From an uncultured Gammaproteobacteria bacterium (GTDB lineage Bacteria; Pseudomonadota; Gammaproteobacteria; Arenicellales; UBA868): DNA of 64,000 nucleotides. Shown one piece after another: positions 42,562-62,026 of the stretch. The notes beneath the pieces were generated by a model, which was given only the letters and a program-made list of their open reading frames with translations, searched no databases and was not told where the DNA came from. The translations under genes and the position numbers were made by a program. Each line of letters starts with the position of its first letter. The first letter of the stretch is position 1. The stretch lies in contig CAJQRU010000111.1 in the NCBI GenBank assembly GCA_905612355.1, positions 1,690 through 65,689 of the forward strand. Direction: 5' to 3'.

Positions 42562-42564
42562 TGG

Positions 42565-43620
42565 TTACAACTGGCTGCGGGCGAGCTTCGCGCCCTCCAC
42601 CATCACTTTGAGCTTTCGTCGTGCAATATCGATGTCAAGCGGCACTAAACCGCAGTCCGGTGCAGCCTGGATCTGATCGGCCGGCAGATATTCGGCCGCC
42701 ATCAGCAGCCGGGCGGCTATCTGTTCAGGGCGTTCAACCCGGTCAAACCCCAGCGCACCATTATCGACACAACCAAATAACACCGTTTTGCTGGGGCACA
42801 GCGCGAGCAATTCGGGATTGAGGCCGGATGCTTCAAACTCGAGCGCCAACTGGTCTACCTTTGAGTGTTCCAGTTCTGTGAGTATGGCGGGATAGGCATC
42901 AACGATCGGCCGTGGCACACCCGGCATCGGGTAACTGTAGCAAACATGGACACAGGTTTTGGCGCGGATTCCTTCGATACACCGATCCAGAGCTTCTATA
43001 CCCCATTCGGCAACTTTGTCCGGGTAACGGCTGAATACCGGCTCATCGAACTGAATGACGGCCGGGCCCAGCGCATCCAGAGCGCGGGCCTCGTCGTTCA
43101 ACGCCCGGGCAACTGCCATGGCCAATGCCCGCTCATCCCCATAGTGCTCGTCAAGCGTAGAATCGACCACAGTCATCGGACCGGGCAGCGTCACTTTCAG
43201 CGGGCGACTGCTGTGCGCCATAGCAAAATGAAGATCGTCGACCACGATCGGTGCATCACGGGATACCTCCCCCGTACAGCGGCCGACCTCGGCCAGGCGC
43301 CGATTGTCTCTCACCCACTTCTTGGCTGGCGTGGCATAGTCAAAACCACCCAGCCGCGCCACAATGTGCGCCAAATAAGAGGTGCGGCGTTGTTCACCAT
43401 CGCTGATCACGTCTATATCGGCTTCGGTCTGATCGTGTATCGCGACTCGAACAGCATCGTCCTGCGCGTGTTTGAGCAGTGCTCCCTCAAAAAGCCATGC
43501 GGCCCCTTTACCATGGACCTGTTTGCCACTGGTATTTAGGGGCAGTTTCTCCTGCAGCCAAGGGGGCTTGGGTAGACTCCCAACAACAGTGGTTAGAAAC
43601 GGTCGGTTCGGCACTTCCAT
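42565..43620 (-). CDS. cobalamin-independent methionine synthase (MetE C-terminal domain)-like protein
   Basis: Contains FLTTVVGSLPKP, DVISDGEQRR, and CVHVCYS (zinc-ligand region). Start chosen at MEVPNRPF. Confidence 0.75.
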   Translation of the reverse strand: MEVPNRPFLTTVVGSLPKPPWLQEKLPLNTSGKQVHGKGAAWLFEGALLKHAQDDAVRVAIHDQTEADIDVISDGEQRRTSYLAHIVARLGGFDYATPAKKWVRDNRRLAEVGRCTGEVSRDAPIVVDDLHFAMAHSSRPLKVTLPGPMTVVDSTLDEHYGDERALAMAVARALNDEARALDALGPAVIQFDEPVFSRYPDKVAEWGIEALDRCIEGIRAKTCVHVCYSYPMPGVPRPIVDAYPAILTELEHSKVDQLALEFEASGLNPELLALCPSKTVLFGCVDNGALGFDRVERPEQIAARLLMAAEYLPADQIQAAPDCGLVPLDIDIARRKLKVMVEGAKLARSQL

Positions 43621-43771
43621 GGCTGTTCTCTCCCAGCGTAGCAATGCGCACGCAGGCTGGATCTGGTGTTCTCAACTATATTCTGGCTAACACAGGCTAC
43701 AGGCTGATCGAAGTATCTCGAGCCAGTGTAACCATAACTCATACAGATTCGTTCACCAATAAGCACGCATT

Positions 43772-44686
43772 CTATAGATCATTACAACACCCAGACTGAC
43801 TCGCCCCCAATTCTCTAGACACTTGCCACCGTTTTTGGTACTGCGTTTCATACTCTACCGGCGAGAGCTGGTTATTGAAACCATGTCGCCGTCGAGTGTT
43901 GTAAAACATCTCAATGTAATCGAATACATCACTGCGTGCTCCTTCCCGCGTTGCGTAGACATGACGTCGAACGCGCTCGCGCTTAAGTAGTTGGAAAAAG
44001 CTCTCAGCAACTGCGTTATCGTGACAGTTCCCCCGCCTGCTCATGCTTCCCTTTAGGCTATGCTCCCGCAGGAAGTTTTGCCAGTCGTAACTGGTGTACT
44101 GGCTACCTTGATCTGAGTGCACTGTGACTGTGCTCAGAGGATTGCGGCGCCATACAGCCATTAACAGTCCATCCAGTGCAAGCTCTTTCGTTATTCGTGA
44201 TTGCATCGACCAGCCAATGACACGCCGCGAGAACAAATCAAGCACCACTGCCAGGTAAAGCCAACCTTCGTGGGTGCGGATATACGTGATATCAGTGACC
44301 CACGCTTGATCTGGTGTTTTCGTACTGAACTGCCGCTGCAACAGATTTGGAACAACGACATGTGCAGGCCCGCTTCGGTGGCGAGGCCGCCGATAACCTA
44401 TCTGCGCCCGCAGTCCTGCGGCTTGCATCAAACGATACACTCTGTTCTTGCCGCAATGTTCACCATATTCACGCAGGTCGCTGAATATCTTCCGATATCC
44501 ATATACTCCACCGCTTTCCAGCCAGAATTGCTTAATCAGTCCGGTGAGCCGTTCATTGGCAATAGCCCGTTTAGAACGCGGCTTGTTCAACCATGCGTAA
44601 TAACCGCTGGGATGAACATCAAACAGCTTACACAGAGCCCGTACTGGCCATTGTGCACTCTCGGCCCTGATAAAGCCGTACCTCAC
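43772..44686 (-). CDS. IS3-family transposase OrfB (DDE integrase core)
   Basis: 304 aa with WVTDITYI (D), HSDQGSQYTS (D) and NAVAESFF (E). Confidence 0.92.
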   Translation of the reverse strand: MRYGFIRAESAQWPVRALCKLFDVHPSGYYAWLNKPRSKRAIANERLTGLIKQFWLESGGVYGYRKIFSDLREYGEHCGKNRVYRLMQAAGLRAQIGYRRPRHRSGPAHVVVPNLLQRQFSTKTPDQAWVTDITYIRTHEGWLYLAVVLDLFSRRVIGWSMQSRITKELALDGLLMAVWRRNPLSTVTVHSDQGSQYTSYDWQNFLREHSLKGSMSRRGNCHDNAVAESFFQLLKRERVRRHVYATREGARSDVFDYIEMFYNTRRRHGFNNQLSPVEYETQYQKRWQVSRELGASQSGCCNDL

Positions 44687-44982
44687 TCGGCCTGATTGGC
44701 GAAGTACACCGCGGCTTTTTTTAGGAGATCACGCTCCTGCCTGGTGCGCTTGAGTTCTTTCTTCAAGCGTCGTATCTCGGCCTGCTCTTCCGACATCGCG
44801 TTGTGTTCCGCGGAATCAGGCCCGAACTTCTTGATCCAGGCATACAAACTATGGGTTGTCATACCGAGCCTGTCGGCCACATCGGCCACACTGTGGCCGC
44901 AATCTACTACCTGTTTAACTGCTTCAACCTTGAACTCATCTGGGTATCGATTTTTGCTCATAATCACCTCTGTCATAGTCAT
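44683..44982 (-). CDS. IS3-family transposase OrfA (HTH)
   Basis: 99 aa with YPDEFKVEAVKQV and a leucine-zipper-like segment LKKELKRTRQERDLLKKAAVYFA. Confidence 0.92.
   Translation of the reverse strand: MTMTEVIMSKNRYPDEFKVEAVKQVVDCGHSVADVADRLGMTTHSLYAWIKKFGPDSAEHNAMSEEQAEIRRLKKELKRTRQERDLLKKAAVYFANQAE
44716..44722 (-). promoter_or_regulatory. candidate programmed -1 ribosomal frameshift site (A7)
   Basis: The minus strand reads CTA AAA AAA GCC near the end of orfA. orfB is open in the -1 frame across this point. Confidence 0.65.
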
Positions 44983-45254
44983 GTTGTATGACTGAAAGAT
45001 GCCTAGTAAACTGGGGACGATTCAGAATGAGCTATCAAAACCATATCTGGATGCGCTAGTACTAAGGCTAGCAAGGGTGCTAGCGTTGCGCGGGATAGCT
45101 GGAAGTTACAGAAACGTGCTGGGGTTGGGAAAACTAAGAAAATTTGGCACAGCCTGGGCTCTTACTTCTAGCACTGCCATTGACGCCCTGAGTGGCCAGC
45201 ATCGTTCGAGATCGGTCTTTTCGGCCTTAAAACATATTTGATGAGAAGATCATA

Positions 45255-47126
45255 ATGAGCGTTGTGAGTGGAATTCTTCATGCGTCTCGGACGCCGCTTC
45301 TATTGACAGCATTATTCCTGGCTGTCTCGACTGCAAGTGCTGGAAGTCTCAATGTTTACGATTACCATAAACGAGTCTCACCGGGCAAAGAAAGGCTTAT
45401 CGTGCCCGTCTATAGAGGTGTTCCGGCAAAGACGCGAAGGTTAATGAAGCGGGCAATCACGCAGTCATACAAAGAACTTGGAAAACGCCCCATTGCAAAT
45501 ACCTATGCACTTTATTGGCATACGAAGAAATCCAACCTTAGGAAGGTCGCTAAGACCTGGTGCGCCGTTGCGGGTCGAAAAGGAAGCGACCTAAAGCGTT
45601 GTTTGACCCAAGGTGGCGGCTGGGATCAAGGTTTTAAAAACTCCAACATTGGGAGCGCCGTATTCGAAACTGCTACCCGCAAAGGTTTAATGGAAGCGAC
45701 CCAAGGCAATTGGAGTGACGCAAGCAGCAATTTTCATGCAAAAACTGCAGCTCACGAATACTTCCACGTTTACCAGACCATGATGCAGTACTATTTTGAG
45801 AAAGAAGATCGGATTGGAATCCCACAAAAGAGGACCAGAAAAGATATACATGGTGGCCCAGTCTGGATGATTGAAGGTGGCGCCGATTATTTTTCCTACA
45901 ATATTATGGGAAAGTACAAGTGGCGTGATTACGAAGAGTGGATGGAGGAGGTTCTGGGTGAAGCAAAAGAAGAAATCACTCGTGGTAGAAAGAAGGGGAT
46001 CAAAGTCATTCTTAAAAACTACGCTACCGATTCACAGTTAGACAAGATGAAAGCCAAGGGGTTCTATGCGCACTTTCAATATGACGGTGGCGCGTGGGCA
46101 AACGCTTACCTTCGTTATCTTACAGGCACGAACAAAGGAGTTTTCACCAATTACTATAAAGATATAGCTGAGCTTGAGCGCACCTGGCGAAAAAAAGGAA
46201 AGATGGATTATGGTTGGCAGAAGTCTTTTAAGAAAAACTTCGGCATGACGGTGAATCAATTCTACGTGCGATTTAACAAATTTATGAAATGGCCAACATC
46301 AAAGCAGATGAAAATACTCAAGGTCATCTCTAAATCCAAGTACAAGTCTGCGTCAACCAAGTATGCCAAGACGGCCTATAAATTAAGCACTCCCTTTGGA
46401 CCGAGTTTAGCGCTGGCGGCTTCTGAGAATCTGTTTATGGTTGGGGAGGATTTTGATCGTAAGGTTATGACGACAGGGGCATCGTTTTCGTTTGACGAGT
46501 ACTCGTATATAGAGATAGCGCCTTCCCCACAAAAGAGTTTTCGGCTAGGGTTTAAATCAGGGCAGGATGAACTGCCTCAGATGGGCGGTAACTTCGCTTT
46601 GGGTTACCAACTGGGGGGTATCCACTATCGCCTTGCTGCCGACAACACCTTTCTAGGCTCTAAGGGCAGTGGGTGGTTGGGCTATGAAGACGCAAGAAGC
46701 GCCTATGTCAATGTTGGAAAGCGTTATTCGTTGGGAAAAAAATGGAATATCGCTGGTGGTGTGACCTATGGCTGGTCACAGGCCAATCCTGAAAAGGAAG
46801 GTGTATTGCAAGACTTTTCAAAGGTGCATGCCCTTGGCTTCAATGCATCTGCTGGTTATCAATTGAACACCAATAACGCACTCGGCTTTCGCCTGAATTC
46901 TCCGCTCAAGGTCGAAAAGGGGTCATTGGTTATCAATTCGCCCTATGATAGTGAGAAGGTTAATCTGGCCCCTGTGGGGCGGGAGTTGAACCTCGTACTG
47001 CACCACACCCATCAATTTAAAAATGCCGCTACCCTGACAACTTCACTCCAATATACCCACGATAATGGACATACAAGAGATCAAAATTCTTCTCGAATTA
47101 TGGCGCAATATTCAATCAACTTTTGA
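45255..47126 (+). CDS. secreted HExxH (gluzincin-like) putative metallopeptidase with C-terminal outer-membrane beta-barrel (autotransporter-like)
   Basis: 623 aa with signal peptide LLLTALFLAVSTASA, AAHEYFHVYQ followed 36 residues later by WMIEGGADYF. The last ~250 aa show an alternating beta-strand pattern and end ...RIMAQYSINF. The gene is Lys-rich and visibly AT-richer than its surroundings. Confidence 0.6.
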   Translation: MSVVSGILHASRTPLLLTALFLAVSTASAGSLNVYDYHKRVSPGKERLIVPVYRGVPAKTRRLMKRAITQSYKELGKRPIANTYALYWHTKKSNLRKVAKTWCAVAGRKGSDLKRCLTQGGGWDQGFKNSNIGSAVFETATRKGLMEATQGNWSDASSNFHAKTAAHEYFHVYQTMMQYYFEKEDRIGIPQKRTRKDIHGGPVWMIEGGADYFSYNIMGKYKWRDYEEWMEEVLGEAKEEITRGRKKGIKVILKNYATDSQLDKMKAKGFYAHFQYDGGAWANAYLRYLTGTNKGVFTNYYKDIAELERTWRKKGKMDYGWQKSFKKNFGMTVNQFYVRFNKFMKWPTSKQMKILKVISKSKYKSASTKYAKTAYKLSTPFGPSLALAASENLFMVGEDFDRKVMTTGASFSFDEYSYIEIAPSPQKSFRLGFKSGQDELPQMGGNFALGYQLGGIHYRLAADNTFLGSKGSGWLGYEDARSAYVNVGKRYSLGKKWNIAGGVTYGWSQANPEKEGVLQDFSKVHALGFNASAGYQLNTNNALGFRLNSPLKVEKGSLVINSPYDSEKVNLAPVGRELNLVLHHTHQFKNAATLTTSLQYTHDNGHTRDQNSSRIMAQYSINF

Positions 47127-47139
47127 CCCCTATAAAAAC

Positions 47140-47214
47140 TGGCTCCCCGGGCTGGACTCGAACCAGCGACATATGGATTAACAGTCCACCGTTCCTACTA
47201 GTTCGAACTGGAGA
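47140..47214 (-). tRNA. tRNA-Asn(GTT)-like sequence, acceptor and D-arm imperfect (pseudo-tRNA or att relic)
   Basis: The reverse complement is TCTCCAG TT CGAACTAGTAGGAAC G GTGGA CTGTTAA TCCAT ATGTC GCTGG TTCGAGT CCAGC CCGGGGA G CCA. The anticodon and T arms are intact. The acceptor stem has an A-C mismatch and the D-arm is non-canonical. Confidence 0.4.
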
Positions 47215-47345
47215 AAGTCTAGCAATTACAACACATCCTTGCGCTCAGACTCCACGCATATTCTCCAATTTGGGACATAACAGGACATGAGTGGACAGAA
47301 GATAGGTACGTTAGGCGGCAATCCGTAGTAGGTGACTACTGTAGG
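47140..47345. repeat. tRNA-like + flank repeat block, copy 2
   Basis: See 41616-41833. Confidence 0.85.
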
Positions 47346-47516
47346 TGACATGTATGGCCGTCCGGGAGGTCGCGATATGCCCTGCCGCACTGTCACTCGG
47401 AAAACTGGGGCATATCCCGTTAATTGTTAACCGGCTAATATAAGATTAATGTGATTATTCATTAATTTTCTATTTGACTGATTACCTGCGGCCTTCTGTG
47501 GTGGCGCCATCGGATA

Positions 47517-49937
47517 ATGAACAGCTTATTAAAAAAACAGATTCGCAAATTCTTGGACGCTCATGGACCGTTGCCACCTGAAATGAAGCCCCTCGTCGCC
47601 GAGATTGACGCGACATACCAATCGCACGAAGACGCCTTGGTAGCATTGGCTGGCTTTCAAGAGATCGAAGCGGCATTGGCCGCGGCCAAGCTGGAGGCTG
47701 ATGCAGCCAACGAAGCGAAGAGCGAATTTCTCGCCAACATGAGTCATGAGATTAGAACCCCGATGAATGCGGTGATCGGGCTTGCCGGTCTCGCACTCAA
47801 GACCGATCTAGATGAACAACAGCGTGATTACCTCGAGAAGATCAGCCTGTCCGGCAAGGCACTACTGCAGATCATTAATGACATTCTGGATCACTCTAAG
47901 ATCGAGGCCGGGCGGCTTGAAACCGAGGAAATTGAGTTCGGTATTGAAGAGTTGCTGGTAAACCTCACCAGCATGGTCGCCACACGGGCCCAGGCCAAGC
48001 GATTGGAGTTTCTGTTTTCAATTGCGCCAGACGTGCCGGCGCAGTTGATAGGTGACCCGCTGCGCATTGGCCAGGTATTGACGAACCTGGTGGGTAACGC
48101 AATCAAGTTCACGGAAGCGGGTGAGGTTGTGCTCGCTATTAAGATGGTAGAGCGTAAATCAGACACGGTACAACTCGAGCTCTCGGTGTCCGACAGCGGT
48201 ATTGGCATGACACCTGAAGAGAGCAGTTTTCTATTTCAGGCATTTACCCAAGCCGACAGTTCCATCACGCGGCGTTACGGCGGCACTGGGCTGGGCCTTT
48301 CCATCTCCAAGGACCTGTTGTTACTGCTCAATAGCAACATCGAGGTCGAGAGCGAACGTGGCAAAGGTAGTCGTTTCTTTTTTCAGTTGCATTTGGGTGT
48401 TGCGCCGGAAACGGATGCGATCACGACCCCGCTGTCGCTGGCGGCCTTGGGTGTTCGTCGAGCGATGGTCGTGGATGATAACGGCCCATCGCGTGATTTG
48501 TTGAGTGCGATGCTGCGTGCGATGCAAATCGACGTTGTCAGCGCCGACTCGGGTGAGGCCGCGTTAGCGATGTTGGATACTGCTGGGAATAATGCTGATG
48601 ACACGGTGGACGTTGTCGTAATGGATTGGTTGATGACGGGCATGGACGGCATCGAAACCCTGGAGGCGATACGCCAACAAGGGGCCAGCGGGCAAGCGCC
48701 GACGGTGATCCTCGTGACAGCCTATGGCCTCGAAGAGGTGCGCGCACGATCGAAGCGGGCGGGCGTCAATGGGCTGCTGCAAAAACCAATTACTCCGTTG
48801 GCTTTGTTTAATGCGATTGCGAAGACACGGCCGGAATTTGCTGGCACGATTACTGAAGTGGTAGCGCTATCTGATGCTGAGCGTTATACGCTGACCGGTC
48901 TTCGAGTATTGCTGGTAGATGACAACAGCATCAACCAGCAGGTGGCCGGTGAACTGCTGCGCGGCGCTGGCGTTGAGGTGGATGTGGCGAATAACGGGCT
49001 CCAAGCGGTAGCGGCGGTGTCAAAGAAGCGTTATGCCGCCGTGTTCATGGATCTGCAGATGCCGGAACTCGATGGTTATGGTGCAACGCGCAGAATTCGC
49101 GATGAACTGGTAAGTAAAGTACCGATTATTGCCATGACCGCGCATGCGATGGAGAGTGAGCGGGCGAAGTGCCTCGAGGCTGGCATGAATGAACACATTG
49201 CCAAACCAATTGAGCCCGACCGACTGTTCTCGGTGCTCGAGACACTGGCGGATCGTTCGGCGCCGACGGCCGAGATCGTTCCGAACGATAAGGCGTTACC
49301 GACTGAGACGGCAGTTTTACCGAATGCATTGCCGGGGCTGGATATCGCCGACGGTGTGCGCCGCGTCGGTGGTAACCGGCAGTTGTATCTGACGATCTTG
49401 ACTCAGTTTCTCGATGACTATGCTGATGGCGCTGAGCGGATGGGATTATTTCTTGCCGACGGTCGTAACGAAGACGCGGAACGGCTTGCGCATACGCTAA
49501 AAGGAGTCGGTGGTAGCATCGGCGCGGCGACGCTGCAGGGATGTGCGGCAACCATCGAGAGCGCGCTGCGCTCTGGTACTGCACCTGGGGCGGACGCGGT
49601 GACGGGGTTCGAAAAGGCACTCACGGAAGTACTCGCCGCGGTGGGCGAGCTCACTGCTGTATCCAGTGACGCTAAGCCGACGGAACACGCAGGCACATCA
49701 ATGGATAAGGCGACGGTGATGGCGCACCTTGATGGACTTTCACAAGCCCTGGAGCAGTTCGATCACCGCGCCGTTCAATTGATTCAGACCGTGCGGCCCG
49801 CCCTGGTAGAGGCTGGCCTTGGCGCATTAATCGAGAAGATGGCCAATGAGGTCAGTGATTTCGAGTTTGAAGCGGCCGCGGTCACATTAAATACAGTGAT
49901 TGAAACGCTCGACAACCCCGCACCAGGTAACGATTGA
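47517..49937 (+). CDS. hybrid sensor histidine kinase (HisKA-HATPase-REC-REC-Hpt) without recognisable sensor or TM domain
   Basis: 806 aa. H-box [18 protein letters not shown] boxes [10 protein letters not shown] and [12 protein letters not shown]1 [11 protein letters not shown]...[13 protein letters not shown] and REC2 [11 protein letters not shown]...[12 protein letters not shown]. Hpt motif [13 protein letters not shown]. Confidence 0.9.
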
Positions 49938-50043
49938 GAGGCTGCGCTGGCAGGATTTGGCGTTTCCGCCGTAGATGCCATAATGGAACGATTGCTTATA
50001 GCCTTCGTGCATTAGGCACCACGCACCAGGAAAAAGTGAACCT

Positions 50044-52170
50044 ATGTCCTCGATTGACAATACGGTAAAGCGACGCGTCCTTGTCGTCGATGATGAACGG
50101 GCCTACCTGACGATTGTGTCGATGACACTGTCGGAAGAGGGCTATGACATCAATGTGGCCAAGAACGGCGAAACTGCGCTGAAGATCTGCCGCTCTGACA
50201 ATCCCCCCGACGTCGTATTGTTGGATATCAACATGCCCGAGATGGATGGTTACGAGGTCTGCAGTGCACTTAAGGCAGATGCCGCAACGCGCGATATCCC
50301 GGTGATCTTTCTGACGGCGCGTAACGAAGAAGGTGATGAGGAGCGTGGCATTGAACTCGGTGCGGTCGATTACCTGGTCAAACCATTTTCCGTACCGTTG
50401 CTGAAGGCACGGGTGGCAACACACAGTCAGCACCCGCAGGCGGTTGCGGCGAGTGCGATCAGCGGTCCACTAAGCATTGGCGATACATTGCTTCAGGCTG
50501 GACTGATTAGTCGGGCCGATCTCGATCGCGCGCTGACTGAGCAGCAGGAAAACCCGGGCCTGCGCCTCGCCGATATCCTGGTCGAGAAACGAATCGTCAA
50601 CGAAGACGACATGACGCGCATTATTGCGGAACGTTTCGGTTTCGAATTTGTTGATCTCACAAAGACCGAACCAGATCCGGCAGCCTTTTCGGAACTCCCT
50701 GCACGCTTGGTGAGAGAATTTAACGCGTTGCCGATTGCCACCGACGAGGACACGGTAACGGTTGCGATGGCCGATCCTTTATCCGGTGATGCCCTTGAGG
50801 CCATCCGCTTTGCTAGTAAGAAACGGGTCATCACGGTGGCGGTTTCGCCGAGTCGAGTGGGGCGCATCATTGCCGACGGCGGCGCAGCACATGAGTCCGA
50901 TACCGAATTCGATGCTTTCGTTGCCGGTCTCATGCGCGACCGGGAGACGGACGTTGATGAAATGGAGGTTGACCCCGAATTACAGGGTGCAATGCGATTG
51001 GTTAACCGCATCATCCTGGATGCCATCAAACAGAACGCCTCCGATATTCATTTTGAGTCGGGTGGAGAATCCGAACGCATGATCGTGCGTTTTCGCCGGG
51101 ACGGGACCTTGAGCGACTATCGCTCGATTCCCCCGGCCTACAAGGACCAGATGCTCGCGCGGCTCAAGATCATGGGCAGCATGGACACTGCCAACCGCCG
51201 TGCCTTCCAGGACGGCAAGGTGCGTTTCAAGGCAGGTAACGAAGATCGCGACCTGAGGTTGGTCAGCCTGCCAACGGCCGATGACAACGAAGACATCGTG
51301 ATGCGCATCCTGGAGCGCGAGAGTGCCTTCCCGCTCAATCTACTCGCACTCAGTGACAAGAACCTGGCACAGTTAACCCCCCTGATTGAACAACCCTATG
51401 GAATGATTCTGGCCGTGGGTCCGACAGGTTCGGGTAAGACCACCACGCTGCACGCGATGATCGGTCATATCAATACCCGTGAGCGCAAGATCTGGACGAT
51501 CGAGGACCCGGTCGAGATCAGGCAGCCGGGGCTGCGCCAATTGCAGGTCGTGCGCGAGGTCGATGTTACCTTTCAGAGCGCGATGCGTTCTTTCCTGAGG
51601 GCGGACCCCGACGTCATCATGGTCGGTGAGATGCGCGATGTGGAGACCGCGTCGATGGCGATTGAAGCATCACTCACAGGCCATCTATTGCTGTCCACGC
51701 TGCACACCAACAGCGCGCCCGAGACCATCATACGACTGATTGACATGGGCATGGAGCCATTCGCCTTCTCTGATGCATTACTGGGTATTCTGGCCCAGCG
51801 TCTGGTCAAGCGTCTATGCGGTAAATGTCGTGAGGACTACGCTGCATCGGATGCGGAGCGCGAAGAGTTTGTCCGTTACCTTGGCGAGGAGCGTTTATCG
51901 AAGTTGACTCGCAGTGAGGGGCTGCGCCTGTCGCGTGCGCCGGGCTGCCAGGACTGCGAATACACCGGTTATGATGGCCGCGTGGCCCTGCACGAGCTGC
52001 TGGTGGTGAACGACGAGATCCGCCAGGCCATCCAGGAGCGTGACTCTTCGGCTGCGGTCAGGACGTTGGCGCAGGCAGCCGGCATGGTAACTTTAATCGA
52101 AGACGGTGCAATCAAATGCCTGGATGGATTAACCGATATCGCGCAGGTAGTATCTGCCTGCGGCACTTGA
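50044..52170 (+). CDS. response-regulator receiver fused to GspE/PilB-family secretion ATPase (REC-MshEN-like N domain-ATPase)
   Basis: 708 aa. REC: VLVVDDERAY...VLLDINMPEMDG...K. N-domain SIGDTLLQAGLISRADLDRALTEQ. Walker A GPTGSGKTTTL, MVGEMRD, LSTLHTN, and the CGKC...CQDC tetracysteine. Confidence 0.9.
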   Translation: MSSIDNTVKRRVLVVDDERAYLTIVSMTLSEEGYDINVAKNGETALKICRSDNPPDVVLLDINMPEMDGYEVCSALKADAATRDIPVIFLTARNEEGDEERGIELGAVDYLVKPFSVPLLKARVATHSQHPQAVAASAISGPLSIGDTLLQAGLISRADLDRALTEQQENPGLRLADILVEKRIVNEDDMTRIIAERFGFEFVDLTKTEPDPAAFSELPARLVREFNALPIATDEDTVTVAMADPLSGDALEAIRFASKKRVITVAVSPSRVGRIIADGGAAHESDTEFDAFVAGLMRDRETDVDEMEVDPELQGAMRLVNRIILDAIKQNASDIHFESGGESERMIVRFRRDGTLSDYRSIPPAYKDQMLARLKIMGSMDTANRRAFQDGKVRFKAGNEDRDLRLVSLPTADDNEDIVMRILERESAFPLNLLALSDKNLAQLTPLIEQPYGMILAVGPTGSGKTTTLHAMIGHINTRERKIWTIEDPVEIRQPGLRQLQVVREVDVTFQSAMRSFLRADPDVIMVGEMRDVETASMAIEASLTGHLLLSTLHTNSAPETIIRLIDMGMEPFAFSDALLGILAQRLVKRLCGKCREDYAASDAEREEFVRYLGEERLSKLTRSEGLRLSRAPGCQDCEYTGYDGRVALHELLVVNDEIRQAIQERDSSAAVRTLAQAAGMVTLIEDGAIKCLDGLTDIAQVVSACGT

Positions 52171-52218
52171 TGCAAGATTTAGAGTCTGCGCATTGAATGA
52201 TGGATAAGCATTAATAAA

Positions 52219-54099
52219 ATGGATAAAGCCGGTCAAAAAGGATTCACGTTGCTTGAGATTATGGTGACGGTAGCGATTGTGGGCATATTGGCGGCGATCG
52301 CGATTCCCCTTTACAACAGTTACGTGACCAAGGCGAGGATTGCTGACAGCTTATCGAATGCTCGGGCGTATGCGGGCAAGGTGACGATAGACAGGGCAGA
52401 GCCTATAGCAGCGCCGTCTGGTTTTGATTATTCGAAGATTGAGTTAGCGGGTTCTCAGGCACAGCCGCGGATTCGGATCAACTTAACAACCGAAATTGAC
52501 AGTACGGTTTTGATGAATCCGGATGAGCGCGCTGGTACATATGTGATCGTGCTAAGTGAAGAGCAGACCGATGCGACGACGCGCTGGGGGTGCACGACCA
52601 ATTTGCCGAAGGCATTAATCCCTGAGGATTGTGCTTATGAATCGGGTGTTAAGGATAGGAAACTGCCGGACGAGTGGGTTAAGGGTGAAGATGCGTGCTG
52701 GAGTAATGCGCGTGCGAACAAGACTGGGAATGGCTGGTCGATAGGAGGTTGTACCGATTGCAACCAGCCCACAGTGCAAAGGAACGTAGCCCAAGGTGGG
52801 TATCGTCCGGGGGCCGCAAATGCCTATGGGCTTGGTTGCGCTGGTCTTTATGGGGGTGATGTGCCTCTCGTGGTTGCCCCGACTCAAGGCCCATCTACCG
52901 AGGATCCTTCGTCGACCGCGAGTGTCGGCGCTCTAACGAGCAGTGGCGGCTCCCCCAAAACAGCAGTAGCGGGCCTCCAACCAGCAGTAGGCGGCCCTCA
53001 AACCAGCAGTAGCGGCCCTCAAACCAGCAGTAGCGGCCCTCAAACCAGCAGTAGCGGTGGTGATAAAGCCGACGAAGCTGAAGCCGACAAAGCAACCCCA
53101 GAAATAACCGACAAAGCTGAAGCCGACAAAGCAACCCCAGAAATAACCGACAAAGCTGAAGCCGACAAAGATGAACCCGCCAGAGTAGCCGAGAAGTGTG
53201 TACCGAGAGGCGCCCCAGTCCCTGAAAGTGGTGGCGGTGGTGGTGATAGCGGTAAAGCCGACAAAGCAGAAAAAAAGGCAACTAAAGCAGAAAAAAAGGC
53301 AGCTAAAGAAGAAAAAAAGGCAGCTAAAGAAGAAAAAAAGCCAGCTAAAGCTGAAGAAGAGCCAGCTAAAGCAGAAGAAGAGGAATGCGAACTGACCAAA
53401 GAAGAAACCGCCGCGAAAAAGGCAGTTAAAGCAGAAAAAAAGGCAGCTAAAGCCGCCGCCAAACAAGCCGAAGAAGAAGCCGAAGAAGCCGAAGCCGCCA
53501 GAGTAGCCGACCTGAGCCCCGAAGAACGGGAAAGAGAAGCGGCATGGAACCTCAAAGTGCAAAACGAAGAGACGGAAGGATCCCTTTGGGCGGACGTACC
53601 AAACCATGCGCGTTGTGGAAAGAAATACTGCAATTTGTACGACTATGGGTTTAGGTCCGGAACACGCGGAGACCTAGAAGGGCCCGACATACTGGCCGTT
53701 ACTGTGTGTTGGAGTGACGCTGTTTCACAGGCCTCGCTCAAGGCCGAAGGAGATGGAGACGGATGGGTGATAGGACCAAACGCCGTACAATCACACCAGC
53801 AATCACGTATGAAGGAATGGGCGGATGACTTCCAACGACAGCAGCGGAAGTTTATGGAGTGCGCAGATGCTAATCCGCAGACCATTATAGTAGGGCGCTC
53901 ACGGTCAGGCATCGCAGAGTATTTGGATCCAGCAAATGCGTCAGCGGCTGGCGGGACGAGCTGCGGTCTTACCATATACTATCAATACGCCGGCATGACC
54001 TCCTCCGAGACCTCACTAGGCACTAGACACTTTAGCGATATTATATGGCGAGAGGGCACCCATTACTGCAACGCGCGTGCAGGGGGAGACGGGACTTAG
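52219..54099 (+). CDS. type IV pilin-like protein with ~480-aa repetitive C-terminal extension
   Basis: Prepilin leader MDKAGQKG|FTLLEIMVTVAIVGILAAIAIPLY. A PilA-like head ends in the disulfide loop WGCTTNLPKALIPEDC. Then come GPQTSSS x3, DKAEADKATPEIT x2, six 21-bp K/E/A heptad repeats and a Cys-containing C-terminal domain. Confidence 0.8.
   Translation: MDKAGQKGFTLLEIMVTVAIVGILAAIAIPLYNSYVTKARIADSLSNARAYAGKVTIDRAEPIAAPSGFDYSKIELAGSQAQPRIRINLTTEIDSTVLMNPDERAGTYVIVLSEEQTDATTRWGCTTNLPKALIPEDCAYESGVKDRKLPDEWVKGEDACWSNARANKTGNGWSIGGCTDCNQPTVQRNVAQGGYRPGAANAYGLGCAGLYGGDVPLVVAPTQGPSTEDPSSTASVGALTSSGGSPKTAVAGLQPAVGGPQTSSSGPQTSSSGPQTSSSGGDKADEAEADKATPEITDKAEADKATPEITDKAEADKDEPARVAEKCVPRGAPVPESGGGGGDSGKADKAEKKATKAEKKAAKEEKKAAKEEKKPAKAEEEPAKAEEEECELTKEETAAKKAVKAEKKAAKAAAKQAEEEAEEAEAARVADLSPEEREREAAWNLKVQNEETEGSLWADVPNHARCGKKYCNLYDYGFRSGTRGDLEGPDILAVTVCWSDAVSQASLKAEGDGDGWVIGPNAVQSHQQSRMKEWADDFQRQQRKFMECADANPQTIIVGRSRSGIAEYLDPANASAAGGTSCGLTIYYQYAGMTSSETSLGTRHFSDIIWREGTHYCNARAGGDGT
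52993..53055 (+). repeat. 21-bp in-frame tandem repeat x3 (GPQTSSS)
   Basis: GGCCCTCAAACCAGCAGTAGC appears three times perfectly, preceded by two degenerate units. Confidence 0.9.
53077..53170 (+). repeat. 39-bp in-frame tandem repeat x2.4 (AEADKATPEITDK)
   Basis: GCTGAAGCCGACAAAGCAACCCCAGAAATAACCGACAAA repeated. Confidence 0.9.
53263..53388 (+). repeat. 21-bp in-frame tandem repeat x6 (K-A/E-E-K-K-A-A heptads, with A7 runs)
   Basis: Units of the AAAGCAGAAAAAAAGGCA(A/G)CT type. Confidence 0.85.
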
Positions 54100-54203
54100 G
54101 GCAAGGGCATGACAAGTAGCAACGGGATAGCCCCAGCGATTCTGCCCTGTTCAGAGCGGGAATACATACTCTGCCTGAAGCGCCCTGACTTCTAACCCGC
54201 CCG

Positions 54204-54226
54204 CCATCCGGTCATCAACCGGGTGG
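54204..54226. terminator. hairpin between convergent pilin-like and RT genes
   Basis: CCATCCGG-TCATCAA-CCGGGTGG forms an 8-bp stem including one G-U pair. There is no clear U tract, so function is uncertain. Confidence 0.35.
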
Positions 54227-54234
54227 CAGTGGTG

Positions 54235-55170
54235 TTATGGAATCCCCAATCGCCTGAGGATGTAAATGTAGTAGCGGTTTACGCCTCCCTTGCGAGTGAC
54301 TAACCCACTCAGTCCTCCGTGCAGCCATCGGTGCCAGTGGATCGCGTACTCCCAGAGGCGTTGTTTATCACCCCCTTGCTCATAAAGCCGGCGGGCACGT
54401 GCCACAAAGCGCTGTAGGCTGACAGATGAGGGGCGTAGTCTGCGCTGTGGGTGAATGGTGTATCCCAGAAAATCAAAGCCGTTATCGGTTTTACCGATAA
54501 AGCACTTGGTCTTGCGGTGTAAGCGCAGTTTCAGACCTGTTGTTATCTTGAATATCTGCGCTATGGCCTTTCTAAGATGCCACCGGGTTGTGGCCAGAAT
54601 GACGAAGTCATCCATATAGCGGACATAGACCAACCGTTTGTCCTTGGCCATCTGCTGATCCAGAGGATTGAGATAAAGACCGCCCAGAATCGGTGACAGA
54701 CTGCCCCCTGCCGTCATGCCTTTCCCTAGATGGAGTCTGTCCGGCAGAGCAAGGTAATCGGTAACGACTGTCTTAAGATCACACCCAACATTGGCTTGTC
54801 TTAATGATTCAAGTAATAAGCCATGATGCAGTGACTCATAGTAGGCAACGACATCAAAGCGGGCCACATAAGCATATCGGTCTACCACCCGATGAAGATC
54901 ACGAACAGCACCCTTAACCCCTCCGTGGCCTTTTAAGTGCTTACAACGCTTGCTGAGAGTAGGTCTTAAGTCATGGCGCAGAAGATTAAATGCGGTTCTT
55001 TGGATAACGCGACTCTCAGGGCACCACTTGGCGAACCAGTGCCCGTTGTCACGCCACAGGCCCACCAGACGCAAATGTTTGCCCGCGACTGCGCGCCGGG
55101 CGGCCACAAGTGGACATGACTGTCGCGGCCAATCGGGTAGGATACGTGATCTAACTTCAGGATTCCCCAC
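54235..55170 (-). CDS. reverse transcriptase (RNA-directed DNA polymerase), stand-alone; 5' end uncertain
   Basis: RT motifs: ARFDVVAYYESL (motif A Asp), GGSLSPILGGLYLNPLD, YVRYMDDFVILA (YxDD), LKLRLHRKTK and FDFLGYTI, plus a thumb-like tail RFVARARRLYEQG. The track ORF runs to TTG 55350, but that part is antisense to a well-supported + strand gene. GTG 55170 is the first start that does not overlap that gene. Confidence 0.7.
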   Translation of the reverse strand: MGNPEVRSRILPDWPRQSCPLVAARRAVAGKHLRLVGLWRDNGHWFAKWCPESRVIQRTAFNLLRHDLRPTLSKRCKHLKGHGGVKGAVRDLHRVVDRYAYVARFDVVAYYESLHHGLLLESLRQANVGCDLKTVVTDYLALPDRLHLGKGMTAGGSLSPILGGLYLNPLDQQMAKDKRLVYVRYMDDFVILATTRWHLRKAIAQIFKITTGLKLRLHRKTKCFIGKTDNGFDFLGYTIHPQRRLRPSSVSLQRFVARARRLYEQGGDKQRLWEYAIHWHRWLHGGLSGLVTRKGGVNRYYIYILRRLGIP

Positions 55171-55182
55171 GAGGAGACGAGG

Positions 55183-55464
55183 ATGAAGGTCTACAGAATC
55201 AGCCACTTCACTGTGCTCGATCAAGACAAACTGGCCCAGACACTCGATGACATGCGCGCGAGTTTTGCAGATCGCACTGGCGCAGAATTCATTGATTTTA
55301 TCTGTGATGCCGAGGGCAACGGGATGGCGGTTGCTCGCTATCCAGATCAAGAGGCAATGGATGCCGCGGCGCCGTACTCAAAGCTGGGCTTCGACAGGCT
55401 GATCGAGGCGGGGTCGGTCGAATTTGTCGAGCCTTGGTCCGGCGAGGTCTTGGTGTCGCTTTAA
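55183..55464 (+). CDS. small ABM/ferredoxin-like-fold protein (antibiotic biosynthesis monooxygenase-like)
   Basis: 93 aa. The ATG is preceded by GAGGAGACGAGG (Shine-Dalgarno). The pattern is beta-alpha-beta-beta: VYRISHFTV...AEFIDFICDAEGNGMAVARYPDQEAMDAA. A hairpin follows at 55471-55488. Confidence 0.6.
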   Translation: MKVYRISHFTVLDQDKLAQTLDDMRASFADRTGAEFIDFICDAEGNGMAVARYPDQEAMDAAAPYSKLGFDRLIEAGSVEFVEPWSGEVLVSL

Positions 55465-55506
55465 AGAGACGCTCAGCCTTACCTGAGCAAATCCGTTAGC
55501 CGCCGG

Positions 55507-57891
55507 TCAGCGTTTGCGACCCGCAAAGACACCGCCCGCCTGGTATCGATCGCCGGTGATGCGAAAATGGCCACCCATCTCAGGGGGGCTGTCTCCAGCA
55601 GATGCCCCGTGGCCGAAAAAGTAGCCGCTGGCTCTTAGCGTGTGGGTTTTTTCAGTGTCGTGAGCCCAGGACGCCGAAGTACTCTTCACGTTGAAGGGTG
55701 CAGCATTGCCGGTGGGAGCGCTGACTCCACGAAAGCGCCGCCCGTCAAAGGAAGCATCGAAGGCCTTCACCTGGTAGTGGGTCGTGCCGAAGCGCACGCG
55801 CGCATCGAAACTCCCGCGGCGCTCAACGATCGAACCCGCACGCAGCACCCCGCCCAGCATAGCGCCCGAATAGGTAGCGCTTTTGTCTGCGGCGGCCGCA
55901 AGTTCTGCCGCGGTCGCGGCTGCACCGGCGAGCCAGTAGCGCAAGCCGCTGGTATCTGCAGTACCGCCGGCAAGGGTCTCTCGTCCCCACGCGAGGAAGC
56001 GGCACGCCGTGCACGGCCGGCGAGCCAGCTTGGGCAGGCTGCCGGTTAGTCTGCCGCTAACCGTGGTCTCAATACGGGCGCCGCCATCGACTGACCACGT
56101 CCATAACGCAACAACGCCGGCCGGCAGGCGAGTCTCGCACGTAGACACCTCCGAATCGCATTCTTCGGCTTCAGACTTGGCTTCCTTTTTTGCTGCTTTC
56201 TTTTCTTTCTTTGCTGCTTTCTTTTCTTTCTTTGCTGCTTTCTTTTCTTTCTTTGCTTTTTTTGCTTCCTTTTTTTCTGCTTTAGCTTCTTGTTTTTCTG
56301 CTTTAGCTTCCTTTTTTTCTGCTTTAGCTTCCTTTTTCTCTGCTTTAGCTTCCTTTTTTGCGGCCTTAGTGGGTTTGGTAATGATCAGTGCGGTCGTTGA
56401 ACTTCCCGAGGACCCAACTTCGATCACGCTGTCACAATCTCCGGCTGAACCGCAACGAATCGATGCCTCGCCGGTAATCGGATCGATTGTTACCGAGATC
56501 GGTGCATCAGTGCCGGAATCCCCCTTGGTGCTTGATTGCCCCTCCTGGATAGTGCTACTGATTTGTTTGCGGTTGCTAATGCTGTTGGCTATAACAAGTC
56601 CCGTGCCAGTGCCACTGTCATCAACGGTCGCACGCCCAAGCGCACGAATACGCTTTGTGGCGGCGCGCAACTCCTGCCGTGCGATTTTGTCTTCTTTCCT
56701 TGTTACGCGCAGCTGTTTCTTGGCTGCAGTATTATTGGCGCGGGCAGTCCGTAAGGCGGTTGTCTGCTCCCGGCGGTGCTTGCGGGCCTCTTTCTTTGTT
56801 TGGTTGGCTGCGCTTCGCTCCCGCAGCGCGGTCTTGAGATCCGATCGGTCGGAGCGGCGGACTTGCCGGGCTTGTCGCAGTGCTTCTTTGGCCGCCTTTA
56901 GTGCGGCTTTCCCTTTGGGACCTGGGATGCCTTTTGCTGCATCGACTCGCGCCTTGGCAGCTCTAAGCGTCTCACCCCTGGCTTTTTTATCTGACTTAGC
57001 GCCTTTTTTGTCCTGACCCACTTGTTGTCGCTGCGCTCGTTTTTCTTTCGCTTCTTTCTGCGCAGCTTTTTGATCCTCCCTTGCTTCTTGTACGGCTTCT
57101 TTAGCCGCCGCGACTTCGGCTTTCGCTCCCGCGCGGGCGTCGGCGGTTTGTTGTTTGTTCTCGGTTGCGGCCAGAAGACTGTCTGCGGTGCTCTGGGTCA
57201 CGGGTTTGCGTTCAAAAGCGCCGACCAGTCGCGTGAGATCGATTGAACTTCGATGTTGTGACGGCAACGGAATGGCATTAGCCCCCATCACCGAGATGAA
57301 GCGGCCCGCCTGAGTCGTGCGCTGGGTCTTGCCGCCAGAGGTGACGGTCAACTCATCACCATATAGAAGGTCTGCCGTCAGTGCCCCGTCTTCGCTCAGC
57401 TCAAGCAGTACAATCCCGCCACGGACGCCCACCGTTGCGTTCGGGGCCAGAAACTTGATCGGGGTCTTTTTCGATATCTTTCCACCCACCAGGCGGAAAA
57501 AGCCCTTGGAGATACTGACGGTCATGGCACCGGTGCCCGCCTTGGGGTCATAGATGTATTCGTCAATGACAAGATCAGAGGTCGGGCCCACCGTCAGCGC
57601 AGTGCCATCCTCGAACAACAACTGGGCACGACCGACTTGATTGGTCGAGACTTTCTCTGAGAAGAATACGCCAACGCCGGTCTTGAGTTCTCTTGCCGGT
57701 GAAATAGGCGGTTTGCCGATCGCCTTGAGGTTGGTGGCCGTGGCGACGGCGACCTGAGTTTCAGGCATCGCTGCCTTGGCAGGGGATGCGAGCCCTAGCA
57801 ATAGCATTAGTGTGAACGCGCTTGCCCCACTGAGGACGATCAAGCGACTCGCGCAAGAGAGACATTTGTTGTCCGACGGCTTTGTCAGCAT
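55507..57891 (-). CDS. secreted FecR-domain protein with Lys/Ala/Glu/Arg-rich stalk and TbpB-like C-terminal beta-barrel domain
   Basis: Signal peptide ...LMLLLGLASPAKA. FecR-like region GRAQLLFEDGTALTVGPTSDLVIDEY. About 300 aa of charged coiled coil includes EAKAEKK x4 and KKEKKAA x3. C-terminus ATYSGAMLGG...GSFDARVRFG...GYFFGHGASAGDSPPEMGGHFRI...GGVFAGRKR matches the TbpB/Slam-cargo barrel pattern. Confidence 0.75.
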   Translation of the reverse strand: MLTKPSDNKCLSCASRLIVLSGASAFTLMLLLGLASPAKAAMPETQVAVATATNLKAIGKPPISPARELKTGVGVFFSEKVSTNQVGRAQLLFEDGTALTVGPTSDLVIDEYIYDPKAGTGAMTVSISKGFFRLVGGKISKKTPIKFLAPNATVGVRGGIVLLELSEDGALTADLLYGDELTVTSGGKTQRTTQAGRFISVMGANAIPLPSQHRSSIDLTRLVGAFERKPVTQSTADSLLAATENKQQTADARAGAKAEVAAAKEAVQEAREDQKAAQKEAKEKRAQRQQVGQDKKGAKSDKKARGETLRAAKARVDAAKGIPGPKGKAALKAAKEALRQARQVRRSDRSDLKTALRERSAANQTKKEARKHRREQTTALRTARANNTAAKKQLRVTRKEDKIARQELRAATKRIRALGRATVDDSGTGTGLVIANSISNRKQISSTIQEGQSSTKGDSGTDAPISVTIDPITGEASIRCGSAGDCDSVIEVGSSGSSTTALIITKPTKAAKKEAKAEKKEAKAEKKEAKAEKQEAKAEKKEAKKAKKEKKAAKKEKKAAKKEKKAAKKEAKSEAEECDSEVSTCETRLPAGVVALWTWSVDGGARIETTVSGRLTGSLPKLARRPCTACRFLAWGRETLAGGTADTSGLRYWLAGAAATAAELAAAADKSATYSGAMLGGVLRAGSIVERRGSFDARVRFGTTHYQVKAFDASFDGRRFRGVSAPTGNAAPFNVKSTSASWAHDTEKTHTLRASGYFFGHGASAGDSPPEMGGHFRITGDRYQAGGVFAGRKR
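56191..56362 (-). repeat. two families of 21-bp in-frame tandem repeats (KKEKKAA x3; EAKAEKK x4)
   Basis: The plus strand shows TGCTGCTTTCTTTTCTTTCTT x3, then CTGCTTTAGCTTCCTTTTTTT-type units x4, with T6-T7 runs. Confidence 0.85.
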
Positions 57892-58182
57892 GGAACCAGG
57901 ACCATAGAAGTCGTTGTTAAGCCACCACGGGAAAGCTCGGTAGAGCAAAGTTTACCGCGACGGGCAGTCTTGCGTATTGAAGACGGGTCAGTTTTGGGTC
58001 GCTTCAGCCGATCGAAGCAGCGACCGATGTGATCTTGATCACCGCGCCGACCATTAATCGGTATTTGTTCTCGATTATTGTGACGACGCGCACATTAGTT
58101 TAGAGCGTGTTGATGAAAGATAGCTCCCGTCGTGGACGGTATCGCGGTCAATTCAAGTCACATCACAACGGAGAATTTAGAC

Positions 58183-59637: not shown

Positions 59638-59782
59638 TCTAAGGTGAACGCGTGCCCGGGCATTGATGTACCGGGCGCGCACTCAAGGCTGCGGTAGTTT
59701 CAGCCAGTGTGAGATTTGGTATTTGAGGGGCTGGGTGGCGACAATAGCGCCGGGGATTCGATCCCCCCCAAGACTATCGCCA

Positions 59783-62002: not shown

Positions 62003-62026
62003 GCGTGCAGCTGCTGGCGTGCCGAT

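Follow-up and report, generated by a model that had tools for sequence, protein, structure and literature searches.

How does an ATPase of the pilus-motor kind, followed by a single giant pilin, serve a filament when no other filament gene lies nearby? The question is raised by a 64,000-nt stretch of contig CAJQRU010000111.1 (assembly GCA_905612355.1), from an uncultured marine gammaproteobacterium of the Arenicellales; this stretch is called the window below. Three plus-strand genes stand in tandem in it, with gaps of 106 nt and 48 nt, and encode a soluble hybrid histidine kinase, a PilB-like ATPase with a receiver (REC) domain fused to it, and a modular prepilin. An initial annotation, made from the sequence alone, had described them as a minimal pilin module; its open reading frame (ORF) coordinates are exact, and the Pfam architectures agree with the domains that it assigned to the three genes. 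Our analysis points, with a probability of roughly 0.55, to a satellite type IV pilus locus, in which a phosphorelay-gated extension motor presents strain-specific modular pilins on core machinery encoded elsewhere.

Filament genes in the window

Among all window ORFs of 150 aa or more, Pfam scans detected no PilC/GspF, PilD, secretin, PilMNOP or PilT, and a six-frame scan for prepilin motifs found no second prepilin in the 64 kb, as the initial annotation had reported. The ATPase gene adjoins neither a PilC/GspF nor a prepilin peptidase gene in the window and so does not belong to a canonical pil/gsp operon, and no GspC-M genes or secretion substrates are linked to the locus. The remaining window content comprises housekeeping genes (eno, sdhAB, lepB, rnc, era, recO, pdxJ), transporters and metabolic genes. 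Filament assembly needs a platform protein and a prepilin peptidase, plus a secretin in diderm bacteria. An ATPase and a pilin cannot build a filament alone, so the module is not minimal in the sense of self-sufficient, and it most probably relies on a core type IV pilus machine whose genes lie outside the window.

A phosphorelay kinase beside a receiver-fused extension motor

The kinase contains the components of a hybrid histidine kinase phosphorelay, namely an H-box histidine (SHEIRTP at residue 76), an ATP-binding domain, receiver Asp sites and an Hpt histidine (Table 1), and has neither a sensor domain nor a transmembrane segment (maximum 19-residue hydropathy 1.29). Its ratio of nonsynonymous to synonymous substitution rates (dN/dS) is 0.22 in comparison with contigs L008 and L097 (L numbers denote other loci compared with the window). 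The kinase's 90%-identity cluster holds 19 sequences, one of them from a metagenome-assembled genome (MAG) labelled "Gammaproteobacteria bacterium" in NCBI.

The ATPase begins with a complete receiver (VVDDE, VLLDINMP at residue 58 with Asp61, IFLTA and LVKP) and belongs to the T2SSE superfamily, with the Walker A motif GPTGSGKT at residue 459. It has no hydrophobic segment (maximum 19-residue hydropathy 1.24). A tetracysteine zinc motif (Cys592, Cys595, Cys635 and Cys638) is invariant in the alignment of its relatives; this motif is typical of extension, not retraction, ATPases. Among solved structures, the best matches are Thermus PilF (442 bits), Geobacter PilB (345–348), Myxococcus PilB (333) and Vibrio EpsE (310), with the retraction motor PilT at about 117 bits. 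By these scores the protein is of the extension type, its closest solved relatives being pilus extension motors. It scores well below the NCBIfam cut-offs for PilB (464.9 vs. 675.65 bits, TIGR02538), GspE (447.6 vs. 630.25 bits, TIGR02533) and TfpB (372.6 vs. 850 bits, NF053534).

The 90%-identity cluster of the ATPase holds 24 sequences. Members of the kinase and ATPase clusters come from marine surveys such as Tara. Among the matches listed outside this cluster, all 119 of 119 lack the receiver; these proteins of 579–587 aa, 52–55% identical to the window ATPase, come from Arenicellales and Pseudomonadales MAGs and also fall below the cut-offs for PilB (499–518 vs. 675.65 bits), GspE and TfpB. 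In the two contexts inspected (L012 and L014, both Arenicellales MAG contigs) the gene lies amid GGDEF, GGDEF-EAL and PAS genes, with no pilC or pilD beside it, and one such relative has a 152-aa pilin 4 kb downstream. In both contigs the orphan ATPase gene is followed by a gene for a conserved secreted protein of 124–140 aa.

The MshEN motif for binding of cyclic di-GMP (c-di-GMP) has been defined in a strict and a relaxed form (PMC5013675). REC-less relatives keep the canonical motif RLGxxLVxxGxI...Q intact, as RLGEVLVKEGII...Q and as RLGEVLVKEGIIS...ALAAQ, a 5-residue spacer and then RLGEVLV.... The window ATPase reads SIGDTLLQAGLI...Q and RLADILVEKRIV...R at the corresponding positions, with SIG and RLA at the motif positions (in the alignment, the pair is SIGDTLLQAGLIS...ALTEQ and RLADILVEKRIV...AER), and does not conform even to the relaxed form: the first copy deviates at position 1, the second at positions 3 and 10. 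A degenerate motif in the REC-fused lineage, against an intact one in the REC-less relatives, suggests an exchange of inputs, in which, we infer, control of the ATPase passed from c-di-GMP to the fused receiver.

Purifying selection acts on the ATPase (dN/dS 0.09–0.13), including its receiver part (0.08–0.12). Since all phospho-sites are intact and the genes are under purifying selection, the Hpt-to-REC relay that the initial annotation proposed for control of the ATPase is plausible, and phosphate probably passes in the direction from Hpt to the ATPase receiver. A receiver fused to a motor, with an Hpt-bearing kinase adjoining, would constitute a direct phosphorelay-to-motor switch that can be tested with purified proteins. 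With its REC-less sister clade, which has the c-di-GMP motif and sits amid GGDEF/EAL genes, it would offer a natural example of regulatory inputs exchanged on the same motor.

A genome-collection scan, whose patterns matched unrelated receivers and distant PilBs, found no other REC-fused ATPase of more than 620 aa among 80 loci. A protein search with the REC and MshEN half was dominated by receiver-only proteins and is uninformative on other REC-PilB fusions. The one mention of REC-MshEN fusions found in the literature is in a survey of domain combinations (PMC5013675). A 2024 review of PilB regulation lists only control by small molecules and partner proteins, and a term search did not find the word "receiver" in it (PMC11656802).

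The conserved pair is followed by a hypervariable pilin slot

The order of kinase, ATPase and prepilin genes recurs in at least 11 independent metagenome contigs (L005–L011, L096, L097, L106 and L107), so the arrangement is not due to chance. These contigs are 90–95% identical to the window in nucleotide sequence from the kinase to the stop codon of the ATPase at 52170, and diverge after it. At least five alleles (411, 417, 626, 827 and 855 aa) from two unrelated families of modular pilins occupy the position behind the ATPase, and thus the pairing of this motor with a long pilin, to which the initial annotation had drawn attention, extends well beyond the window. We refer to the family of the window pilin, which includes the 411-aa and 417-aa alleles, as A-type. 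The 827-aa and 855-aa alleles share 34% identity over their first ~450 residues, are unrelated past that, and resemble the A family in the head only (~28% identity). Since all five measure 411–855 aa and come from unrelated families, large size is a property of the slot and is not peculiar to any one gene. In six contigs the assembly breaks off 10–215 nt into the pilin gene, as is usual where populations are heterogeneous.

To the right of the slot, the conserved flank consists of a 93-aa ORF, for which no NCBIfam or PADLOC family was found, and a gene for a FecR-domain secreted protein. The left edge of the conserved kinase-ATPase core is a degenerate copy of tRNA-Asn, left of which the similarity of contig L007 to the window ends. 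This copy, with ~150 nt of flanking sequence, forms a repeat (47133–47345) that is 81% identical to 41609–41833, which includes the intact tRNA-Asn at 41616–41689 (minus strand). Comparison of these contigs, which was beyond the reach of the initial annotation, shows that the pilin is what varies at an otherwise conserved locus. That the slot always holds a very large modular pilin, from unrelated families, suggests a functional coupling between motor and oversized pilin, and raises the question of how such subunits fit in a filament.

The prepilin combines a type IVa-like anchor with modular extensions

The prepilin has the leader MDKAGQKG with cleavage before FTLLE, and hence a class III signal peptide (QKG followed by FTLLEIMVTVAIVGILAAIAIP; N_methyl 32.8 bits, TIGR02532 33.8 bits), one strongly hydrophobic helix and 14 cysteines. 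Its anchor, for which PAK pilin (1oqw) is the best solved match and PpdD the best NCBIfam model, with the GFxxxE model also matched, resembles those of type IVa major pilins. N_methyl at residues 5–29 is its only Pfam domain. Of the perfect leader and complete PilA-like head with a D-region disulfide loop that had been annotated, the leader, the length of 626 aa and the D-region pair Cys125/Cys138 are present, but the head model (Pilin, PF00114) was not detected in the window protein. The same model scores 21.7–23.1 bits in A-type relatives, around its 22-bit cut-off, and is clearly positive in allele B (34.3 bits).

A search of 5.8 billion proteins returned ten relatives of 346–441 aa, and with the copies found at the loci (further A-type copies are in L001, L104, L106 and L107) the range is 346–447 aa. 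They share the first ~215 residues of the window pilin at 54–65% identity, a part that spans nucleotide 52640, and Cys125, Cys138, Cys160, Trp161 and Trp173 are invariant in the family. The dN/dS of the head is 0.27. Past residue 215 the relatives continue with an Ala/Glu-rich linker that varies in length, followed by a small module (CW...G(N/D)GW.xG) in one to three copies and by variable ends; the linker of L106 and L107 (AEAEAAKVEAA) differs from that of the window.

In the window protein, the ~475 residues past the head comprise a knob, three tandem-repeat arrays, all recovered by Tandem Repeats Finder (TRF) as annotated, and an orphan module of 200 aa, an architecture that makes it a modular pilin; its low-complexity linker exceeds 200 aa. 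The C-terminal module is in the same frame as those of L106 and L107 and 34–40% identical to them. Residues 425–626 contain no Pfam domain, and their one weak match among 1.84 billion representatives is confined to CW...GNGW. AlphaFold2 models of residues 1–230 and 425–626 were too poor to use because the alignments held 8–11 sequences. An internal KCVPRG (residues 326–331, about 53194–53211) corresponds to the extreme C-terminus of most shorter relatives (CVPK, CVPR or CVDP), and the window allele may have grown by fusion of extra modules onto this ancestral end. The earlier statement that such a pilin could not pack into a normal filament was itself inferred; published work on modular pilins favors a place at the tip but permits one in the filament body where the linker is flexible (PMC8179133).

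A conserved 3′ element and probable exchange among pilin copies

A conserved element of two parts, separated in the window by a 53-nt hairpin insert, follows the A-type pilin genes. Its copies are 91–94% identical after every A-type long-pilin gene inspected, where the 3′ halves of the pilin genes themselves cannot be aligned, and it is also present in L001–L004. An exact 25-mer of it was found in only 4 metagenome contigs, in each case beside A-type pilins. It folds modestly better than shuffled sequence (z-scores of −1.9 to −2.8), and an Rfam scan of 43000–58500 found a partial tRNA only and no known RNA by this element or by the neighboring reverse transcriptase (RT) gene. In the loci that carry the RT, the element makes up the last ~17 codons of the RT ORF. 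Scans for sigma-54 and sigma-70 promoters and for terminators around the genes gave nothing above chance.

Over 2.5 kb, contigs L106 and L107 differ only in a 175-nt patch and in two changes of repeat number in the linker. The patch (pilin nt 468–642, residues 157–214, knob 1) holds one 3-nt indel and ~33 substitutions, which are of all types. Its variants recur in other loci, that of the window resembling L001a and that of L106 being equal to L104. This recurrence suggests that pilin copies undergo gene conversion with one another. In L001–L004, two A-type long pilins stand in tandem without an ATPase nearby (in L001, 408 and 447 aa at 7109–9916) and adjoin a 1,765-aa double C39-peptidase ABC transporter. 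In JGI sample 3300009706, the source of L002, another contig encodes an Era identical to that of the window, which hints that the tandem pilins are donor copies in the same population.

A second route of exchange may involve the FecR gene, as inverted repeats (I1–I12) connect it with the pilin gene. The KAEKKAA array of the pilin (53254–53385) is an inverted repeat of an array in the FecR gene (56245–56376, within its KAEKK array at 56177–56386), with 77–86% identity over 132 nt. The two arrays are 2.9 kb apart and in the same codon phase. Recombination between them would make an in-frame exchange of 3′ modules between the pilin and FecR genes.

A UG4 reverse transcriptase accompanies the A-type alleles

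The gene convergent with the pilin, which the initial annotation had missed, encodes an RT of the UG4 class (PADLOC RT_UG4, 206 bits, E = 1.7e-61, residues 98–347) with the catalytic motif YMDD at residue 245. The first ~64 codons of its ORF are antisense to the conserved 93-aa gene, which places the real start near 55158. At this locus the RT gene goes with each of the three A-type alleles (window, L106 and L107) and is missing beside the 855-aa allele of L096. Mestre et al. (2022; PMC9226505) report a subgroup of UG4 RTs that often occurs together with predicted fimbrial proteins and shows no enrichment in defense islands, with no mechanism proposed. In plasmids of Serratia, Burkholderia and E. 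coli, relatives of the window RT (~30% identity) stand at the 3′ end of chaperone-usher fimbrial operons, and in Salmonella they are convergent on an inverse-autotransporter adhesin gene; no pilin was found near the best plasmid match, from Vibrio aquimaris. This company of adhesin and fimbrial genes suggests that the association of the RT with an adhesin-like pilin is probably not incidental. The allele series with and without the RT provides a rare natural handle on an RT class of no known function.

A diversity-generating retroelement was considered and rejected: no pair of template and variable repeats was found in 51500–58500, the substitutions are not adenine-specific, and the RT is of the UG4 class.

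Table 1. Features of the locus (window positions unless a contig is named) and alleles in related contigs
Feature	Position	Strand	Details
Degenerate tRNA-Asn copy	47151..47209	-	Rfam tRNA 34 bits, partial
Hybrid histidine kinase, soluble	47517-49937	+	806 aa
Kinase HisKA	47715-47912	+	residues 67-132; Pfam
Kinase HATPase_c	48051-48395	+	residues 179-293; Pfam, 90 bits
Kinase REC1	about 48462-48824	+	Pfam Response_reg; Asp site VVMDWLMT at residue 367
Kinase REC2	48906-49238	+	Pfam Response_reg; Asp site VFMDLQMP at residue 509
Kinase Hpt	49395-49637	+	residues 627-707; Pfam; HTLKG at residue 659
REC-fused PilB-like ATPase	50044-52170	+	708 aa
ATPase REC	50077-50415	+	residues 12-124; Pfam Response_reg PF00072, 103 bits
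ATPase degenerate c-di-GMP motif pair	about 50470-50631	+	motif alignment
ATPase MshEN/N1	50635-50871	+	residues 198-276; Pfam
ATPase T2SSE core	50992-52149	+	residues 317-702; PF00437, 376 bits
Modular type IVa-like prepilin	52219-54099	+	626 aa
Pilin leader, alpha-1 helix and head	52219-52668	+	N_methyl, family alignment
Pilin Cys/Trp-rich "knob 1"	52669-52863	+	family alignment
Pilin repeat array 1	52926-53057	+	TRF, period 21
Pilin repeat array 2	53069-53170	+	TRF, period 39
Pilin repeat array 3	53263-53453	+	TRF, period 21
Pilin orphan C-terminal module	53491-54096	+	no Pfam match
Hypervariable segment vs. other A-type alleles	52715..54169	+	pilin residue ~166 to stop plus 70 nt; blastn matches of L107/L106 end at 52714/52677, resume at 54170
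Whole replaceable cassette vs. non-A allele L096	52171-55191		blastn match of L096 ends at 52170, resumes at 55192
Conserved 3′ element of A-type pilin genes	54170..54287		21-nt part 54170-54190, 46-nt core 54240-54287
3′ element copies	L002 3040-3105 and 4610-4680; L104 131-179		
UG4-class RT	54235..55158	-	convergent with pilin; mechanical ORF to 55350
Conserved 93-aa ORF	55183..55464	+	right flank of cassette; 92% in L096, present in L106
FecR-domain secreted protein	55507..57948	-	Pfam FecR; conserved right flank in L096, L106
Post-ATPase gene, L005 and L006			827-aa prepilin (N_methyl and Pilin, rest orphan); different downstream gene
Post-ATPase gene, L096			855-aa prepilin; window match resumes at 55192, 92%; no RT
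Post-ATPase gene, L106			417-aa A-type pilin; window match resumes at 54170 (3′ element, RT)
Post-ATPase gene, L107			411-aa A-type pilin; window match resumes at 54170 (3′ element, RT)

Proposed function and alternative explanations

In the reading that we favor, the soluble hybrid kinase probably passes phosphate via its Hpt domain to the receiver on the PilB-like ATPase, which probably stands in place of the c-di-GMP input of the closest ATPase relatives. The switched-on ATPase would then probably dock on a core machine encoded elsewhere (platform protein, peptidase, alignment complex and secretin) and drive the assembly of filaments that carry the downstream modular pilin. Given its PilA-type anchor, its long flexible linker and its strain-specific display modules, this pilin is most likely a presented adhesin or ligand-binding subunit. 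Its position is a replaceable cassette between conserved flanks, and one allele family has the UG4 RT as an accessory.

Several points weigh against this reading. The specificity of phosphotransfer is not readable from sequence, and its support consists of adjacency and co-conservation. The REC fusion was seen in one 90%-identity cluster only, that of 24 sequences, and is thus a narrow lineage feature. Platform protein, peptidase and secretin have not been located, the accessible sequence being 64 kb of a MAG. The poor models (pLDDT of 34.5 for residues 1–230 and 52.4 for residues 425–626) yield no fold that would back an adhesin role, and a PilA-type head in a position adjacent to pilB would also fit a major pilin.

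The last point is central to an alternative that we regard as unlikely, in which the locus is the primary pilB-pilA of the lineage, other pilus genes are scattered, and the giant pilin is the major subunit of a "bottle-brush" with appendages of 250–700 aa on flexible tethers. The head is indeed like that of PAK pilin and PpdD, with an 8-residue leader and with F1, E5 and P22 present, and a pilA beside pilB with exchangeable alleles is the arrangement of Pseudomonas. The whole ATPase clade, however, lies below the PilB equivalog cut-off (465–518 vs. 675.65 bits), which suggests a paralogous clade and not the canonical motor, even if its REC-less members also stand without pilC and pilD, once with an ordinary pilin at 4 kb. 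A conserved head with a hypervariable appendage is what would be expected if the appendage shields the head; yet tandem A-type long pilins are also found with no ATPase nearby (L001–L004), and we know of no major pilin of such size. Steric modelling of a modular pilin likewise favored the tip (PMC8179133).

It is improbable, in our assessment, that the RT and the 3′ element form an adhesin-variation device, replacing the 3′ part of the pilin gene or making it mosaic through cDNA copied from RNA of the pilin locus, or through RT-assisted recombination with the conserved head and the 3′ element as anchors, with kinase and ATPase as mere neighbors. The linkage of the RT to the A-type alleles, its intact YMDD motif and dN/dS of 0.31, and the 3′ element, which is conserved more than coding sequence, would fit such a device, as would the ties of UG4 RTs to fimbrial proteins and not to defense islands (PMC9226505), the plasmid relatives beside chaperone-usher operons or an inverse-autotransporter adhesin, and the 175-nt patch by which L106 and L107 differ within 2.5 kb. 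Ordinary gene conversion without an RT nevertheless explains the recurring patch variants, A-type pilins with the element and without the RT exist (L001–L004), the hallmarks of template-directed, adenine-specific mutagenesis are missing, and no UG4 RT has a known function. A form of retroelement-assisted variation unlike that of diversity-generating retroelements, in which RT, head and 3′ element promote replacement or mosaic conversion of the display part with other long pilins, such as the tandem pair of L001–L004, as donors, is an equally doubtful proposal; if true, it would give UG4 RTs a function and account for their link to fimbrial genes.

We also give little credence to the notion that no pilus is built at all, the ATPase instead signalling or powering a short secretion pseudopilus, or the "pilin" being a surface or periplasmic protein with a membrane anchor, for which the prepilin signal serves in targeting only. 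The ATPase is about equidistant from PilB and GspE (465 vs. 448 bits), but its best solved relatives are pilus extension motors. The lack of filament genes nearby would fit this notion, but GspC-M genes and secretion substrates are equally lacking at the locus, and the head keeps the polymerization features E5, P22 and the invariant D-region Cys pair. In Myxococcus, PilB can act as a signalling protein (PMC5544727), which would give the first variant a precedent.

Finally, although repeats and population heterogeneity break many assemblies at the pilin gene, an assembly chimera or a frameshift near 52640 that fused a normal pilin to a downstream gene can be dismissed, since the ten relatives and L001b, L104, L106 and L107 read in frame across residues 140–215 with the invariant Cys and Trp residues running through the junction, the C-terminal module continues in the frame shared with L106 and L107, and these two contigs independently span ATPase, pilin, RT, 93-aa ORF and FecR gene in order; the long pilin is real, and the artefact that the initial annotation had named as its own possible refutation is excluded.

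Neighboring features of the window

The intact tRNA-Asn and the repeat with its degenerate copy bracket a segment of 5.3 kb just left of the kinase gene, which contains a DUF411 gene, a MetE-like gene, an IS3-family transposase (43772–44982) and a gene for a 623-aa protein, and looks like an island inserted at the tRNA. The 623-aa protein (45255–47126, plus strand) is secreted, with the HExxH-like sequence HEYFH and a weak C-terminal match to an outer-membrane beta-barrel, and falls in no assigned family. A 763-nt duplication with the DUF411 gene (32143–32904 and 41801–42562) is 99% identical, and a 100-nt repeat is found at 32993–33093 and 41154–41253. Right of the pilin cassette, 55507–63481 encodes the FecR-domain protein, an S8 subtilase, a CHASE2 adenylate/guanylate cyclase and a TPR protein.

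Comparison with known systems

Three features of the locus were not found described in the literature: that a motor with a fused receiver has a dedicated relay kinase, that such a motor is consistently paired with oversized pilins of unrelated families, and that a UG4 RT goes with particular alleles of a type IV pilin as an accessory gene. The locus is built from known kinds of parts, namely modular pilins, accessory PilB motors and pilin allele islands.

Modular type IV pilins, as surveyed by Raynaud et al. (2021; PMC8179133), comprise more than 1,200 proteins with 264 architectures and up to 860 aa. Like Streptococcus sanguinis PilB and PilC and like CofB/TcpB, the window protein joins a pilin module through a linker to C-terminal modules, with the same expected role of presenting ligand-binding parts on a filament. 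It differs from them in that its modules match no known domain and are nearly without homologues, its linker is unusually long and repeat-rich, its head is of the PilA type and not a small minor-pilin module, and its gene stands in a hypervariable slot that goes with a dedicated ATPase.

That one machine can be served by a second extension motor is known from TfpB (PMC11656802). As with TfpB of Acinetobacter baylyi and the MshEN-bearing MshE/PilB, a PilB-like hexameric motor with an N-terminal regulatory domain here stands apart from the core; in contrast, the window ATPase is no member of the TfpB, PilB or GspE equivalogs, has a degenerate c-di-GMP motif, and carries a fused receiver with an Hpt kinase adjacent.

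The slot itself is most readily compared with the pilA allele island of Pseudomonas aeruginosa, where groups I–VI with the accessories tfpO, tfpY and tfpZ are located next to pilB and a tRNA (PMC5331068). In both cases a pilin gene by pilB and near a tRNA is exchanged for unrelated alleles, with an allele-specific accessory gene. The pilins of the window locus, however, measure 411–855 aa and not about 150, the accessory of one family is an RT, the pilin gene follows that of the ATPase in the same orientation, and the locus lacks pilC and pilD. With the UG4 RTs described beside fimbrial genes (PMC9226505) the locus shares the RT class and its place by an adhesin or fimbrial subunit gene outside a defense island, but whereas the plasmid cases inspected involve chaperone-usher or inverse-autotransporter systems, the neighbor here is a type IV modular pilin.

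In Neisseria, the Sma/Cla repeat is a short conserved 3′ element of the pilin locus. The pilE/pilS system has, as does the A-type locus, a conserved 5′ region and a short 3′ element around a variable part, patch-wise mosaic variation and extra copies elsewhere. This is a resemblance only: the extra copies in L001–L004 are at most candidates for silent copies in the same genome, and no G4 (G-quadruplex) or other recombination-initiating element was identified at the pilin locus. Set against all of these systems, a conserved kinase and ATPase with a swappable pilin slot would represent a means, so far unstudied, of controlling and varying a surface adhesin.

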